Shown here: positions 52,154 to 56,209 of the stretch, in pieces
How the letters are laid out: each line of letters opens with the position of its first letter
Numbering within the stretch: position 1 is the first letter of the stretch
NCBI GenBank assembly: GCA_963662265.2
Contig: CAXXHA010000010.1
Location: 1-64,000, forward strand
Length of the DNA stretch: 64,000 nucleotides
From: Spirochaetia bacterium
Lineage (GTDB): Bacteria; Spirochaetota; Spirochaetia; CADAEX01
Reading direction: 5' to 3'
Translations under genes and position numbers: made by a program
The notes under the pieces: generated by a model
The model's database searches: none
Told to the model about the DNA's origin: nothing
What the model saw: the letters and a program-made list of their open reading frames with translations, nothing else

Positions 52154-52636
52154 CTACATCCCCATGCTTTCAAGCCATTCCTTTTCATTCTTTTTCATCT
52201 CATCTTCAGTAAGCTTCCACTTATTTGTCGCTATAGCCCAGACATGGCCGAAGGGATCAAGGACTTTCCCCATCCTGTCTCCCCAGAATGCATCCATTAT
52301 TTCATCCACAATTTCAGATCCGTTTTCCACCATTCCATTGTAAACAGCATCACAGTCTTCAACATATATAAACAAGCTCACAGTAGTCCCGTTAATAGCA
52401 CCTTTCTCCACACCTCCCGGATAGGAATCAGCCATCATAAGATTTGTATCCCCAATTCTTATCATTGAATGCATTATCTTATCACTGCCTGGAAAACTGT
52501 AAGGGGGAAAAACAAGTTCCGCCCCCAGCACTTTCCTGTAATATTCAATAGCTTCTGAACAGTTTCCATTAAACCACAGATTAGCTGTTACATTGTTCAT
52601 CCCTTCTGGGACAGGTTTTAATGCTTTTTCAGCCAT
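52154..52636 (-). CDS. VOC/PhnB-family (glyoxalase-like) protein
   Basis: AIEYYRKVLGA, IMHSMIRIGD, DAFWGDRMGKVLDPFGHVW. Confidence 0.9.
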   Translation of the reverse strand: MAEKALKPVPEGMNNVTANLWFNGNCSEAIEYYRKVLGAELVFPPYSFPGSDKIMHSMIRIGDTNLMMADSYPGGVEKGAINGTTVSLFIYVEDCDAVYNGMVENGSEIVDEIMDAFWGDRMGKVLDPFGHVWAIATNKWKLTEDEMKKNEKEWLESMGM

Positions 52637-52907
52637 TAAAATTCTCCTTGTATAGAGATCTGTAAGTATGAATAATTAAGCCTTGAATTTTCTGTTTAAA
52701 CACCTGAAACATTTTATACCTTACTTTTATTAATAGTAGTTTCAAAATGATCTGTTTTCAAAAGAAACTCTTACATGAGGCTGTATTTACAATAAATTTT
52801 AATAAAATCAGATATTCTGAAGGCTTTATAAATTAAACAGGACGAAAATTCTTTCTTCAGGACCGGAAGATAATTTCATATTTAAACAAGCAGTGTTTTA
52901 AATATAA

Positions 52908-52971
52908 AATAATATCGATATTATTGTATCCAATATTGACATTTTTCTTATTCGATACTATATTATCCATA
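52908..52971 (+). promoter_or_regulatory. Unit 1 promoter with TATCGATA operator
   Basis: Palindrome AATAATATCGATATTATT 52908-52925; TTGACA 52936-17-TATATT 52959. Confidence 0.75.
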
Positions 52972-53237
52972 CAGGTTGGGCAAACAACCTGTAGGTGAAA
53001 ATATTTTGTTTTTGAGAAAATCAAAAATAAAAAAAGAAAATAGAATGTACGAAAGACCTCTGGTAAATGGCAAAATAATATCAGAAATAAGGTCTTTCAA
53101 TAAAAAAACTGCAAATACGTCCGGCAAAACAGTATTTGCAGTTATAATCTAAGACTTTTTTATAGATTCCTCCTAACCTTCTAAAAAGAGTTTTATTCAT
53201 GGGAACCTGCTGTAAGTTTTACAGCAGGTTCTTTTTT
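52970..53237 (+). ncRNA. Candidate structured sRNA of about 270 nt (unit 1)
   Basis: Lies between a promoter and a U-tailed terminator (53203-53237); three hairpins with GGCAAA in their loops and one hairpin exposing TTCCTCCT; no RBS-led ORF. Confidence 0.6.
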
Positions 53238-53576
53238 CATTATTACCTCCTGTAATAATGAGTTGTTATTTATAAAACTGCAGTGAGTTTCACTGCAGTT
53301 TTTCTTTTTGCTGGCCGTTGCTGCATAAACAGGCTTTTTATACTTATAATTCTGCATTTATTTCACAGACTTATCCGCTGATCACCTGGCAGAAATCTTA
53401 TATTTCCCTATTAACAGCTTTCAAGGACTCTAAAGCTGTTAAACTTATTTCAACAGTGTTTTATCCTCCCGGAATAATTCTAATTATCACGCAGTCTAAA
53501 CACTGTTTTGCCCATATTCCCATATGGAGCCCACCTGTCTACCTATCTAACTACCCAGAACCATGTAGATAAATTT

Positions 53577-53637
53577 TTATCGATAATTACATATCTTATA
53601 TTGACATTTTTTATTTTCGATAGTATGTTATCGATAG
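53577..53637 (+). promoter_or_regulatory. Unit 2 promoter with two TATCGATA operators
   Basis: TTATCGATAA 53577-53586; TTGACA 53601-17-TATGTT 53624; TTATCGATAG 53628-53637. Confidence 0.75.
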
Positions 53638-53676
53638 TTAGAGATTGAAATAAATAGTATTTCAAGGAGGACAATT

Positions 53677-53772
53677 ATGTTAGAAATTTTAATTGTAGCT
53701 ATTATAGCAGCTGGTGCAGTTTTTGCATTCATAGAAGACGGTCGTGTTAGTCCTAACGGAATCGACTGGTAA
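53677..53772 (+). CDS. 31-aa hydrophobic peptide MLEILIVAIIAAGAVFAFIEDGRVSPNGIDW
   Basis: AAGGAGG RBS 53664-53670, own promoter, paralogue at 54205; too short for the ORF track. Confidence 0.75.
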   Translation: MLEILIVAIIAAGAVFAFIEDGRVSPNGIDW

Positions 53773-53803
53773 TCTAGAAAAAACTTGTTTTGAGGAGATC
53801 AAA

Positions 53804-53947
53804 ATGAAAAAAATACTTAGTAAATTATCAGAAAGACCATTTATCAATGGCAAACAGAGACATATTAAAAAAGAAGGCCTTTCAATTAAGGCAGTTGCAG
53901 AAGCAACAGGAAAATCAATTGAATCTGTACTTTCAATGAAATTCTAA
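53804..53947 (+). CDS. 47-aa basic peptide with HTH-like C-terminus
   Basis: GAGGAG RBS, ATG 53804; MKKILSKLSERPFINGKQRHIKKEGLSIKAVAEATGKSIESVLSMKF. Confidence 0.6.
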   Translation: MKKILSKLSERPFINGKQRHIKKEGLSIKAVAEATGKSIESVLSMKF

Positions 53948-53991
53948 AACTTCTTTTTAACTTCAAACCTTCTAAATTTTGAGTTTTATTC

Positions 53992-54028
53992 AAAAGACCT
54001 GCTGAGCCGTATACAGCAGGTCTTTTTT
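53992..54028 (+). terminator. Unit 2 terminator
   Basis: AAAAGACCTGCTG/CAGCAGGTCTTTT stem plus T-run. Confidence 0.8.
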
Positions 54029-54102
54029 AATTTTTCAGTGAAAATCATTGATAACCTTTGTTCAGGAAGTAGATAAATAAAAATCATGCATTTTGATAAT
54101 AT

Positions 54103-54164
54103 ATTATCGATAATGCTGTATCCATACTTGACTTTTTCAGTTATCCTTTATACATTATCAATAA
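54103..54164 (+). promoter_or_regulatory. Unit 3 promoter with TATCGATA operators
   Basis: ATTATCGATAAT 54103-54114; TTGACT 54128-17-TACATT 54151; TTATCAATAA 54155-54164. Confidence 0.75.
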
Positions 54165-54204
54165 CTTTAAATACGATTTTAATAATCTTGTTAAGGAGGC
54201 CAGC

Positions 54205-54306
54205 ATGTTACTTATCAATACTTTAGTAATCATGGCTATTGCAGCAGGAGTTTTAGCTGCATTCATTGAAGATGGAAAAACAGCACCAAATTGCTGTGAC
54301 TGGTAG
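54205..54306 (+). CDS. 33-aa hydrophobic peptide MLLINTLVIMAIAAGVLAAFIEDGKTAPNCCDW
   Basis: TAAGGAGG RBS 54192-54199; shares IAAG...AFIEDG...PN..DW-stop with the 53677 peptide, with synonymous changes between them. Confidence 0.75.
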   Translation: MLLINTLVIMAIAAGVLAAFIEDGKTAPNCCDW

Positions 54307-54517
54307 AAAGTAGTCTGAAGATTTCAGATACTTGTAAAAACTGAAAACAATCAGTAGAAAGGTCTGTAATTTACAACAGGATTAACAATATAGAGAAAGG
54401 AAGACCTTTCACATTACATTCCATGATGCTGCAGCAAAAACAACAGAATCGGCATCCGGAATGTAAAACAAAAGACTTTTTAGATTCCTCCAAAATTCTA
54501 AAAAGAGTTTTATTTCC

Positions 54518-54550
54518 AGGCCCCGCAGCGTTGCTGAGGGGCCTTTTTTT
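54518..54550 (+). terminator. Unit 3 terminator
   Basis: AGGCCCC-GCAGC...GCTG-AGGGGCCT stem plus T-run. Confidence 0.8.
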
Positions 54551-54685
54551 CCCCCTTTCACGCAAATACCCATTCTCTCGGCAGCTTCATAAGATTTAAT
54601 AATAAAATTCCGCCTCTTGCGATTTATATGCATATCATGCAACTTCAACCATCCAGGTATTTTTACAAAATAATTACAGACTGTA

Positions 54686-54740
54686 TTGACTTTTTCCCTT
54701 TTCGATAGTATTATATCGATAACAAGTTACCGATAACAAG
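54686..54740 (+). promoter_or_regulatory. Unit 4 promoter with downstream operators
   Basis: TTGACT 54686-17-TATTAT 54709; ATATCGATAAC 54713-54723 and GTTACCGATAAC 54726-54737. Confidence 0.65.
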
Positions 54741-54802
54741 CAATATTTCTGATGGCCAGAAATGTTTGACTTTATAAATACAACTGGAATAAGGCTGGAG
54801 AT

Positions 54803-54835
54803 AAAAAAAATCCCGGATCCGAAGAACCGGGATTT
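54803..54835 (-). terminator. gdhA terminator, possibly also ending the unit 4 transcript
   Basis: A8 followed by the AAATCCCGG/CCGGGATTT stem. Confidence 0.75.
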
Positions 54836-54871
54836 ATATAAGCCTAATCAGGCTAAATATAAAACTATATC

Positions 54872-56209
54872 CTAGTAACCGAGATCAAGCATTGCATCTG
54901 CAACTTTCTTGAAACCGGCAATATTAGCACCGTTGATGTAGTTTACAAAACCTGAAGCATCTTTGCCTTCTCTAACACAAGCAGCGTGGATGTCTTTCAT
55001 GATTACTTTGAGTTTTGCATCAACTTCTTCAGATGACCAGTTGTATTTCATTGAGTTCTGGCACATTTCAAGACCTGATACTGCAACACCACCGGCATTA
55101 GCAGCTTTACCAGGACCAAACGGGATCTTGTTTTTAACAAACTCAACTGCAGCATCTGCAGTACAGCCCATGTTGGATGTTTCAACAACATATTTAACAC
55201 CGTTTGAGATAAGAGCTTTTGCATCATCGAGAGTAAGCTCGTTCTGGAAAGCACAGGGGAATGCCATATCAACTTTAAGTTCCCATGGTTTTTTACCTGC
55301 AACAAATTTTGCGCCGAATTTTTCAGCGTAAGGAGCTACAACATCATTGTTGGAAGCTCTGAGCTCAAGCATATAGTCAAATTTTTCTTTTGTATTGATA
55401 CCTGCTTCATCATAGATGTATCCGTCAGGTCCAGAAATTGCCACTACTTTACCACCAAGTTCAGTAGCCTTCATTACAGCACCCCAGGCAACATTACCGA
55501 AACCTGAAACAGCAATTGTTTTGCCTTTCATTGAATCATTGTTTGTTTTGAGCATTTCATCAGCAAAATACATTGTACCAAAACCAGTTGCTTCAGGTCT
55601 TACAAGTGAACCGCCCCAGTTAAGGCCTTTACCTGTGAGTACACCTGTGTTTTCAGCTCTGAGTCTCTTGTACTGACCATACATGAAACCGATTTCTCTT
55701 CCGCCTACTCCGATATCACCTGCAGGAACGTCAGTCTGAGGACCGATATATTTCTGAAGTTCTGTCATGAAACTTCGACAGAATCTCATGATTTCTGCAT
55801 CTGATTTACCTTTAGGATTAAAGTCTGAACCACCTTTACCTCCACCCATTGGGAGAGTAGTAAGACTGTTTTTGAAAATCTGCTCAAATCCGAGGAATTT
55901 AAGAGTTCCGAGAGTAACGCTTGGGTGGAATCTGAGTCCGCCCTTATATGGACCAATAGCGTTGTTAAACTGAACTCTGTAAGCCTTGTTTACCTGTACT
56001 TCACCGTTATCATCTTCCCATTCAACTTTGAACATGAAAGTTCTGTCCGGCTCAGTAATTCTTTCAAGGATTTTTGCATCTACATATGCAGGGTTGTCGT
56101 TAACTACATCAATAATAGATTCAACTACTTCTTTTGCAGCCTGAATAAATTCCGGCTGAGCTGGGTTTTTTCTTTCCAGTTCTGCCATAAATTCGTCAAG
56201 ATTATACAT
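54872..56209 (-). CDS. gdhA: NAD(P)-specific glutamate dehydrogenase
   Basis: GPYKGGLRFHPSV, LPMGGGKGGSDF, DVPAGDIGVG, RPEATGFG, GFGNVA; AAGGAG RBS before ATG 56209. Confidence 0.96.
   Translation of the reverse strand: MYNLDEFMAELERKNPAQPEFIQAAKEVVESIIDVVNDNPAYVDAKILERITEPDRTFMFKVEWEDDNGEVQVNKAYRVQFNNAIGPYKGGLRFHPSVTLGTLKFLGFEQIFKNSLTTLPMGGGKGGSDFNPKGKSDAEIMRFCRSFMTELQKYIGPQTDVPAGDIGVGGREIGFMYGQYKRLRAENTGVLTGKGLNWGGSLVRPEATGFGTMYFADEMLKTNNDSMKGKTIAVSGFGNVAWGAVMKATELGGKVVAISGPDGYIYDEAGINTKEKFDYMLELRASNNDVVAPYAEKFGAKFVAGKKPWELKVDMAFPCAFQNELTLDDAKALISNGVKYVVETSNMGCTADAAVEFVKNKIPFGPGKAANAGGVAVSGLEMCQNSMKYNWSSEEVDAKLKVIMKDIHAACVREGKDASGFVNYINGANIAGFKKVADAMLDLGY

Follow-up and report, generated by a model that had tools for sequence, protein, structure and literature searches.

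Introduction

Sequences complementary to the Shine-Dalgarno (SD) sequence occur in hairpin loops or 3′ untranslated regions (3′UTRs) of several described bacterial RNAs. In the ccaF1-CcsR1-4 locus, or cuckoo RNA family, of Alphaproteobacteria, a gene for a 50-71-aa protein is reported to carry hairpin RNAs in its 3′UTR, with CCUCCUCCC in every loop, variable stems, and tandem duplication (PMC4615179, PMC8034643). The family definition given in PMC4615179 calls for 2-4 adjacent hairpins, no more than 10 nt apart, each closing a loop of 9-27 nt with at least 6 base pairs and presenting CCUCCUCCC or an accepted variant of it there. In the icaR mRNA of Staphylococcus aureus, an anti-SD motif in the 3′UTR is described as pairing with the SD sequence of the message's own 5′UTR (Ruiz de los Mozos 2013, as cited in PMC12697547). 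In Bacillus subtilis, anti-SD-like sequences hundreds of nucleotides downstream, including in the 3′UTR, are reported to pair with the ribosome-binding site (RBS), speed decay, and block initiation (PMC12697547, a 2025 preprint). The Rsa RNAs of Firmicutes, RsaE among them, are described with a UCCC motif in their loops (PMC2790875), and RNAIII is mentioned in PMC4615179. Here, we describe a locus in which hairpins with CCUCC in the loop precede intrinsic terminators. It lies in a 64,000-nt window (positions 1 to 64,000 of contig CAXXHA010000010.1) from the 3.77-Mb genome of an uncultured Spirochaetia bacterium, designated G000.

The locus, flanked by a VOC-family gene and gdh, consists of four tandem plus-strand units, each of which opens with a copy of one promoter. 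Two kinds of small open reading frame (ORF) are found in it, a 47-aa frame termed ORF2 and hydrophobic peptides of 31-33 aa. Comparison of the sequences indicates that the CCUCC hairpin and its terminator are a conserved 3′-end RNA module of a genus-restricted small gene family in uncultured Spirochaetia. We propose, with slightly less than even confidence, that the ORFs of the locus are themselves repressed by the anti-SD loop, both in cis and in trans, the latter from the ORF-less unit 1.

The closest analogue that we found is the ccaF1-CcsR1-4 locus. As far as the published accounts describe it, the two share a very small protein gene (50-71 aa there, 47 aa here) with a hairpin 3′UTR, an anti-SD-like C/U loop motif, variable stems, tandem duplication, and a propensity of the loci for duplication and rearrangement; the function thought to apply there, RBS occlusion, is the one proposed here. 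However, the present locus is not a member of the family. It belongs to another phylum, and its motif is shorter (UUCCUCC versus CCUCCUCCC). Each module here has one anti-SD hairpin with its own terminator, whereas 2-4 adjacent hairpins are described as released by RNase E there, and the units here have their own predicted promoters. In helix length and in the size of the loop (12-13 nt), the hairpins agree with the cuckoo definition, but in motif and in the arrangement of adjacent hairpins they do not. A search of positions 52600-54900 on both strands against Rfam with cmscan (E up to 10) returned 42 weak, chance-level matches; neither RF02344 nor families of the RsaE/RoxS type were among them. 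The association of cuckoo RNAs with DUF1127 (CIN1 context) does not extend to this locus, as that domain was absent from the ORF2 proteins of G000 and the sister species G002 in a Pfam scan (E up to 10), and the association with a small gene holds by analogy only.

By analogy, the 3′UTR-5′UTR pairing of icaR appears to be the nearest cis model and the UCCC-loop Rsa RNAs the nearest trans model. As described for icaR and B. subtilis, the anti-SD-like motif lies in the 3′UTR of a small, regulator-like gene, here 180-290 nt past the SD, and fold-back on the RBS, with a loss of translation and stability, would be expected. The pairing here, however, is predicted and limited to a 5-7-nt core, the motif sits in a dedicated hairpin loop, and a purely cis role leaves unexplained why the motif persists in the ORF-less copies. 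Unit 1 resembles the Rsa RNAs and RNAIII, as these are described, in being a predicted stand-alone RNA with C-rich, SD-complementary, unpaired loops (two of them if its first terminator is read through). It differs in having no sequence or covariance-model similarity to those RNAs, in carrying CCUCC instead of UCCC, and in deriving from a decayed protein gene. A limited literature search on spirochaete small RNAs (sRNAs) and anti-Shine-Dalgarno sequences found no such anti-SD hairpin element described in spirochaetes. If our interpretation is correct, this would be the first such module described in Spirochaetia and would extend the few known anti-SD-loop RNAs (cuckoo/CcsR, Rsa, 6C) to an independent lineage. 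It would serve as a clean natural example of a 3′UTR anti-SD element on a tiny gene that has outlived decay of the gene, with a possible shift from cis to trans action, and would support the recent claim that distal anti-SD sequences are general repressors of bacterial mRNAs.

Results and Discussion

Sequence and Fold of the CCUCC Hairpins

A preliminary description of this stretch, made from its letters alone, had reported CCTCC loops ahead of the terminators of units 1 and 3, a further CCTCCT hairpin between two terminators, and loss of the hairpin from unit 2. Each of these observations is borne out. The motif occurs as TTCCTCCT at 53167-53174, as TTCCTCC at 54485-54491, and within CATTATTAC-CTCCT-GTAATAATG at 53238-53260. 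Hairpin C of unit 1 (53150-53196, plus strand), which contains GACTTTTTTATAGA-TTCCTCCTAACCT-TCTAAAAAGAG, has the 13-nt loop UUCCUCCUAACCU and folds over 53150-53195 with -10.4 kcal/mol (z -2.7). Its counterpart in unit 3 (54470-54512, plus strand), CTTTTTAGA-TTCCTCCAAAAT-TCTAAAAAG, has the 12-nt loop UUCCUCCAAAAU and folds over 54470-54511 with -8.5 kcal/mol (z -2.3). Hairpin D of unit 1 (53237-53261, plus strand) reaches -8.9 kcal/mol (z -9.5), with CCUCC as its loop, which is 5 nt long in G000 and 7 nt in the sister species G001. From each of the three hairpins, it is 5-13 nt to a strong intrinsic terminator. Hairpin C of unit 1 is followed by T1 (53201-53237; 15-pair stem and U tract; 53201-53233 in the terminator scan) and hairpin D by T2 (53274-53309; 53274-53302 in the scan), a paralogue of T1 through repeat family D2; T3, located by folding at 54518-54550, follows the hairpin of unit 3. 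All three terminators are on the plus strand. Hairpin D with T2 is a tandem duplicate of hairpin C with T1; linker and terminator align and the loop CCUCCU is kept, with unrelated stems. In unit 2, the 3′UTR and terminator span 53948-54032 on the plus strand (terminator at ~53993-54028 from folding), and the stretch homologous to the hairpin has neither a fold (-1.8 kcal/mol, z -0.04) nor CCTCC.

The 16S rRNA of G000 ends in GGATCACCTCCTTTCT, and CCUCC is thus the anti-SD core of this organism. In all five full-length predicted transcripts with a C-type hairpin, the motif costs only 0.0-0.3 kcal/mol to open (0.0 in unit 1); opening the SD sequences in predicted transcripts costs 1.0-5.7 kcal/mol. 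An antiterminator arrangement, in which CCUCC would pair with the 5′ arm of the terminator, was considered and rejected. It appeared only in a wrongly cut fragment of G002, is impossible in unit 3, and is absent from properly cut folds.

The rarity of this arrangement was gauged by a scan of both strands of the genome. Among 4789 CCTCC sites, 619 lie wholly inside a hairpin loop of the local minimum free energy fold. Solid hairpins, defined by at least 7 pairs, a loop of no more than 15 nt, and a ΔG of -5 or lower, account for 67 of the 619, and 8 of these 67 have terminator-like sequence within 25 nt downstream. Genome-wide, a strong (-21 kcal/mol) terminator after the CCTCC loop is found only at the two C-type hairpins of the locus. 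Since the two hairpins are paralogous, it is other genomes that must supply the argument against chance.

Conservation of the Module in Related Genomes

The genomes available for comparison are those of the sister species G001 and G002, together with contigs from public sequencing runs (including contigs in X4 and X7), which come from relatives. The hairpin is kept in G001, in G002, and in a metagenomic relative. The preliminary description had made its reading depend on conservation of the loop, and CCUCC is retained in 7/7 available hairpins (five C-type and two D-type), with the longer UUCCUCC in 5/5 C-type hairpins. The remainder of the element is more variable. The 3′ halves of the C-type loops differ (UAACC, AAAA, CACA, UAAAC), and the stems of C-type and D-type hairpins share nothing. 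The same three units stand at the same place in G001. In G002, a single unit adjoins gdh and consists of a promoter, ORF2, the hairpin TTTTTATAGA-ttcctcctaaact-TCTATAAAAA, and a terminator, with no peptide gene. In the X7 relative, the C-terminus of ORF2 (..IESVLAMIN, stop) is joined directly to 50 nt identical to 53154-53203. The hairpin starts 0-3 nt past the ORF2 stop codon in both G002 and the X7 relative. In addition, a promoter of the unit 1 type is joined to the ORF2 SD in contigs from X4 and X7. The joints in all these contigs have short sides and come from relatives, and are suggestive only.

The pattern of identity between G000 and G001 follows the hairpins. Hairpin C of unit 1 is 98% identical, T1 95%, hairpin D 92%, and T2 77%; the corresponding values are 66% for third codon positions of gdh, 40% for the unit 1 body, and 24% for the spacer after T2. 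In unit 2, the 3′UTR that has lost the hairpin is 43% identical and its terminator 63%, and this tail appears to be a useful internal control, in which the region decays once the hairpin is gone. Contigs from a close strain differ at 5 positions over 1961 nt of the locus, none of them in a hairpin. The substitutions that do occur are compatible with folding. The two differences between T1 and its G001 counterpart compensate each other within the stem, two stem substitutions in the unit 3 hairpin of G001 both produce G-U pairs on the plus strand, and an extra base in G002 turns an A-A mismatch of unit 1 into an A-U pair. In an alignment of five sequences (A6), the stem of hairpin C (helix 2) comprises 13 pairs; 89% of its cells are paired, and in 5 pairs both partners have changed. 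This count is biased toward the structure, which was derived from the same five sequences.

These changes bear on whether the hairpins have any function. They might be terminator-linked remnants, might resemble one another through recent exchange between lineages, or might reflect a minus-strand feature in which GGAGG is a real SD. The sequence AGGAGG-TAATA-ATG on the minus strand of hairpin D does open a frame of 15 codons, G000 and G001 both have a short minus-strand ORF that encloses hairpin C, and the available genomes are all closely related. However, that frame crosses the T1 stem, and in the C-type hairpins the minus-strand GGAGG has no start codon in the 12 nt that follow it. Agreement between the minus-strand ORFs is confined to the invariant nucleotides, with full divergence beyond them, and the G-U changes fit a plus-strand RNA only. 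Identity at 50/50 positions in three lineages, where neutral identity is ~66%, is not drift, and the unit 2 tail, at 43%, shows how fast the region decays after hairpin loss. Readings of this kind are very unlikely. The comparative sequence data indicate instead that the hairpins exceed chance and form a genuine RNA element, which is conserved and exposes its anti-SD loop.

Searches for further members returned little beyond the sequences already in hand. No additional copies were found in G000 by DNA, single-peptide, or peptide-profile search. A covariance model (R1) built from the five sequences and run over 20 genomes of the family, including G000, recovered nothing but the sequences used for training, the degenerate site of unit 2, and noise resembling terminators; a weak match in genus g2 has CCUCC ahead of a terminator in an unrelated context. 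A metagenome scan for the hairpin pattern gave at least 116 stretches, and among the 80 examined none had the hairpin together with a terminator and most were one unrelated gut sequence. Separately, loci L057 (1500-1575) and L055 of genus g2, which belongs to the same family, have a weak, AU-rich hairpin that contains AUUACCUCCUUUUUU and is immediately followed by a strong terminator. It lies ~130 nt downstream of a membrane-protein gene, is near-identical in the two genomes, and may be an unrelated instance of the same theme.

ORF2 and Its Decayed Copies

Unit 2 extends from 53636 to ~54032 and holds the intact copy of ORF2 in G000 (53804-53947, plus strand). A 9-bp hairpin with a 5-nt loop contains both its AUG and its GGAG SD, the latter in the loop. 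Relatives of the 47-aa product fall into 8 clusters among 5.8 billion proteins, and G001 and G002 are the only species representatives with ORF2. A third locus returned by the ORF2 search, in an Armatimonadetes metagenome-assembled genome, matches only residues 26-44. A profile of ORF2 found no relative in JGI metagenome contigs or viral contigs. On the sequences searched, ORF2 is confined to one genus of uncultured Spirochaetia. At curated cut-offs, it belongs to no Pfam or NCBIfam family; below threshold, Pfam, NCBIfam, and PHROGs give only helix-turn-helix hints. A structural model with a predicted local distance difference test (pLDDT) score of 76 likewise gave non-significant matches, mostly to helix-turn-helix DNA-binding domains, and Foldseek found no match in the PDB at an E value of 0.001 or lower. 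The description of ORF2 as helix-turn-helix-like is a guess.

Units 1 and 3 retain traces of the same gene. The body of unit 1 (53009-53152, plus strand), which folds into hairpins A and B, ends in a stop codon (53150-53152) directly before the CCUCC hairpin. It contains the codons for ERPLVNGK and SGK as well as a version of the SD hairpin in which the loop has changed from GGAGA to GAAAA, and repeat families D3 and D5 tie it to ORF2. The hairpins of this body are kept in G001 with different stem sequences, and no unit 1 ORF is conserved there. In unit 3, the body (54307-54465, plus strand) also folds into hairpins (GAAAGGUC..GACCUUUC and others), and the stretch homologous to ORF2 is no longer open. 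Judged from these remnants, units 1 and 3 are decayed ORF2 copies that retain the hairpin. The single unit of G002 and the direct joint of ORF2, stop codon, and hairpin in X7 imply that the ancestral unit comprised a promoter, ORF2, the CCUCC hairpin, and a terminator. The same comparison indicates that the hairpin is ancestrally the 3′UTR of ORF2 and not of the peptide gene, the peptide being a later passenger.

Two further features of the ORF2-derived sequences were observed. In the ORF-less copies (53052-53099 and 54354-54410; ~1182-1211 and ~2291-2341 of L024), the codons for ERP (GAAAGACC) and GLS (GGxCTTTC), which mismatch in intact ORF2 genes, now form a perfect 6-9-bp stem, GAAAGG..CCUUUC. 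In the next hairpin, the loop CCGGCAAA, derived from the GK codons, is kept over differing stems in G000 and G001. Coding sequence in the ORF-less copies thus seems, from these alignments, to have been reshaped into RNA structure. In P0008, a relative of ORF2, the middle third is a +1-frame reading of the same nucleotides (..KKDRLSTVNRDILRKKDFQ..), which implies two compensating frameshifts or sequencing errors; the unit 1 remnant ORF shows a similar shift and return of frame.

The units of G000 and of G001 show a complementary distribution of parts: the hairpin is missing from the one unit in which both ORFs are intact and is present twice in the ORF-less unit. In these two genomes, the unit was multiplied; unit 2 kept both ORFs and lost its hairpin, and unit 3 kept the peptide gene and the hairpin. 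Unit 1, its coding capacity gone and two hairpin-terminator modules left, is in effect an sRNA gene with its own predicted promoter. One extension of this history holds that a cis regulator in the 3′UTR of ORF2 became a trans-acting sRNA, unit 1 with its two loops, that controls the intact paralogue lacking a hairpin of its own. This would be the birth of an sRNA from a pseudogenized mRNA and a spirochaetal convergence on the ccaF1-CcsR architecture, possibly including RNA binding by the ORF2 protein. Taken as a whole, the extension is speculative and somewhat improbable, and the path from pseudogene to sRNA is the part most worth following.

Proposed Pairing of the Loop with Ribosome-Binding Sites

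In the proposed mechanism, the loop would keep UUCCUCC permanently single-stranded at the 3′ end of short RNAs. It would pair with the strong SDs of the locus's own small ORFs (AAGGAGG for the peptides, GAGGAG for ORF2) and lower translation or stability. Action would be in cis where an ORF and the loop share an mRNA, as in G002 and unit 3, and in trans from unit 1 on unit 2. The predicted transcripts of G002 and of units 3 of G000 and G001 do carry the anti-SD-like motif on the same mRNA as a matching SD, the arrangement described for icaR. The SD and the anti-SD lie at positions 56 and 232 in G002, 33 and 325 in unit 3 of G000, and 29 and 256 in unit 3 of G001. Duplexes of the loops with the peptide SDs are predicted at -9.0 to -12.2 kcal/mol, compared to -11.2 to -11.4 kcal/mol when these sites pair with the 16S tail. 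Repression of the locus's own ORFs is the most economical reading because the loop is open, the SDs are unusually strong, the duplexes match that of 16S rRNA in strength, and B. subtilis provides a precedent. The preliminary description had suggested that the loops repress the peptides with an AGGAGG leader or other mRNAs. The general part of that suggestion survives, as the hairpins are conserved, CCUCC is exposed, and action on SD sequences is the best available reading.

Several observations weigh against repression of the locus's own ORFs, most of them concerning specificity. When all 4784 GGAGG sites in the genome were ranked by pairing, the peptide SDs came 3152 and 4019 for loop C of unit 1, 2877 and 2878 for loop D, and 2775 and 4588 for the unit 3 loop; with such ranks, there is no complementarity beyond the generic 5-7-nt core. 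The flanks of the loops and of the SDs do not co-vary. A GGAGG SD precedes ~200 of 2244 crudely called genes, so that a bare CCUCC loop is without evident specificity. A 17/20 match between 53232-53251 (the hairpin D region, inverted repeat I8) and the start region of ORF2 was discarded, since 228 genome sites equal or beat it. Nor is CCTCC avoided in coding sequences (observed/expected 1.08; 1184 observed versus 1112-1165, or ~1130, in synonymous-codon shuffles), and the genome-wide selection against anti-SD sequences reported for B. subtilis is thus not visible here. Invariance of the unit 1 hairpin extends to all 47 nt, further than the exposure of a 5-mer would demand. The base for conservation is three genomes plus fragments of relatives, and the promoters, transcript ends, and expression of the locus are all predictions. 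In a separate observation, long ORFs proved poor in GGAGG on their sense strand, with 2398 occurrences versus ~3300 in synonymous-codon shuffles.

The lack of a special match to the locus's own SDs would fit better if the units were trans-acting or 3′UTR-derived sRNAs whose C-rich loops seed mRNAs elsewhere, globally or across a regulon, as proposed for cuckoo/CcsR, RsaE/RoxS, and RNAIII, with the locus's own ORFs not being the main targets. Unit 1 has a conserved predicted promoter and terminators and no ORF, its loop is fully accessible in predicted folds, and the known families with anti-SD-like loops are described as acting in trans (PMC4615179, PMC2790875). However, target-specific complementarity by which mRNAs could be ranked is lacking. 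The best of the extended matches to the loops fall far inside coding regions, one of them in a dehydrogenase motif, and not at start sites; they were rejected as targets. Moreover, the ancestral single unit is an mRNA 3′UTR and not a free-standing sRNA. On this evidence, action mainly on distant mRNAs is unlikely.

The whole-length invariance of the unit 1 hairpin hints at a protein partner or another constraint. It extends across G000, G001, and the X7 relative and includes stem positions that would be free to compensate. The hairpin could be an element for protein binding, processing, or stability, perhaps bound by the ORF2 protein or guarding the 3′ end, with CCUCC conserved for that recognition. 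Its start 0-3 nt after the ORF2 stop in G002 and the X7 relative would suit such a role, and CcaF1 is described as a small protein that binds the CcsR RNAs from its own 3′UTR (PMC8034643). In contrast, ORF2 has no DUF1127 or other RNA-binding signature, and the non-significant matches of its model are mostly to DNA-binding domains. What the unit 3 and D-type hairpins preserve is limited to CCUCC and pairing, a pattern better suited to a constraint on an exposed motif than to recognition of a specific stem, and we regard a recognition element of this kind as quite unlikely. Repression by the exposed anti-SD loop is retained as the working interpretation; because the organism is uncultured, its practical value is as a lead for heterologous tests and not as an immediate system.

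The Hydrophobic Peptides

The peptide genes of G000 lie on the plus strand in unit 2 (53677-53772, 31 aa, SD AAGGAGGA) and unit 3 (54205-54306, 33 aa, SD AAGGAGGC). The 31-33-aa family has 7 representatives among 1.84 billion proteins. Its members have an N-terminal hydrophobic helix, a polar tail, and a conserved C-terminus, ..AF[IV]EDG.TAP..[CI]DW. A more distant, stand-alone paralogue is found elsewhere in the genomes of G001 and G002, one in each (L190, ~1496-1597; L188, minus strand, ~1450-1570), with an ordinary terminator, no CCUCC hairpin, and no evident partner RNA. With this membrane peptide ending in CDW or IDW and the 47-aa ORF2, the locus flags two unstudied families of small proteins.

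The preliminary description had drawn an analogy to type I toxins, in which the hydrophobic peptides would be the toxins, the 3′ anti-SD loops would silence their mRNAs by fold-back, and unit 1 would be the antitoxin RNA. Some features are shared with type I toxin mRNAs as these are described (aapA1/IsoA1 of H. pylori, PMC6733600; hok/Sok), namely small hydrophobic peptide genes, strong SDs, and an anti-SD sequence on the mRNA. The peptides are conserved, hydrophobic, and shorter than 60 aa, and in size and shape fit such toxins. The predicted mRNA of unit 3 carries both a peptide gene and an anti-SD loop, and anti-SD sequestration is documented for AapA1 (PMC6733600). However, no antisense or partly complementary antitoxin RNA was found at the locus. 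An antisense promoter-like site on the minus strand (53853-53824) is altered in G001. Whole-RNA duplex energies of unit 1 with the peptide mRNAs are reached by 7, 27, 30, and 5 of 100 shuffles; the duplexes with units 2 and 3 are meaningless full-length pairings, no better than shuffles, and were dropped. Runs of complementarity reach 9-13 nt at most; they are AU-rich and mostly belong to terminators or paralogous arms. The C-terminal motif EDG.TAP..CDW suggests a specific function over simple membrane damage.

The association of hairpin and peptide gene is also loose. The hairpin is tied ancestrally to ORF2 in G002 and X7, the peptide-bearing unit 2 has lost it in both G000 and G001, the stand-alone paralogues do without it, and pairing is limited to the core. 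The special link between loops and peptides in the preliminary description does not hold up, and the analogy to type I toxins fails, as there is no extended complementarity, co-variation, or conserved antisense RNA to support it. A toxin-antitoxin arrangement has, in our estimate, little chance of being correct. The mechanism suggested is plausible in general terms and was assigned to the wrong gene, since the partner gene is ORF2 and not the peptides.

Predicted Promoters and Minor Features

The common promoter of the units has the form TTGAC[AT]-17-TAT... with TATCGATA palindromes and constitutes repeat family D1 (4 copies); all copies are on the plus strand. That of unit 1 (52904-52971) has TTGACA at 52936, a 17-nt spacer, and TATATT ending at 52964, with the palindrome upstream and a TCGATA half-site in the spacer; it scores 11/12 and is 82% identical between G000 and G001. 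The unit 2 promoter (53569-53636) has the palindrome on both sides and a TCGATA half-site in its spacer and is 90% identical to that of G001. The unit 3 promoter (54096-54163), identified by promoter scan and repeat family, is 79% identical. A fourth copy (54654-54721) is followed by a short tail with no CCUCC and would yield a short RNA terminating at the gdh terminator; G001 has no unit 4.

The TATCGATA palindromes occur at 52913-52920, 53578-53585, 53629-53636, 54105-54112, and 54714-54721, and elsewhere in G000 at C1:262176(-) and C17:37146(-). They lie upstream of the -35 element in units 1 and 3, on both sides of the promoter in unit 2, and past the -10 element in unit 4, and TCGATA half-sites are found in three spacers. 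The presence of this architecture in all four units suggests one regulator, and the palindromes resemble the operator of a common regulator, perhaps ORF2 itself. The arrangement of TATCGATA, a gap, and TTGAC occurs 8 times in the genome, 3 of them at the locus. Another case is upstream of small ferredoxin-like and hydrogenase-like genes, and one more has no evident ORF behind it.

On the minus strand, 53193-53251 contains the 15-codon frame MKKEPAVKLTAGSHE, which runs through the T1 stem. Its G001 version, MKKEPAAKLAAGSHE, carries the two compensating stem changes, and the frame is probably a by-product of the terminator.

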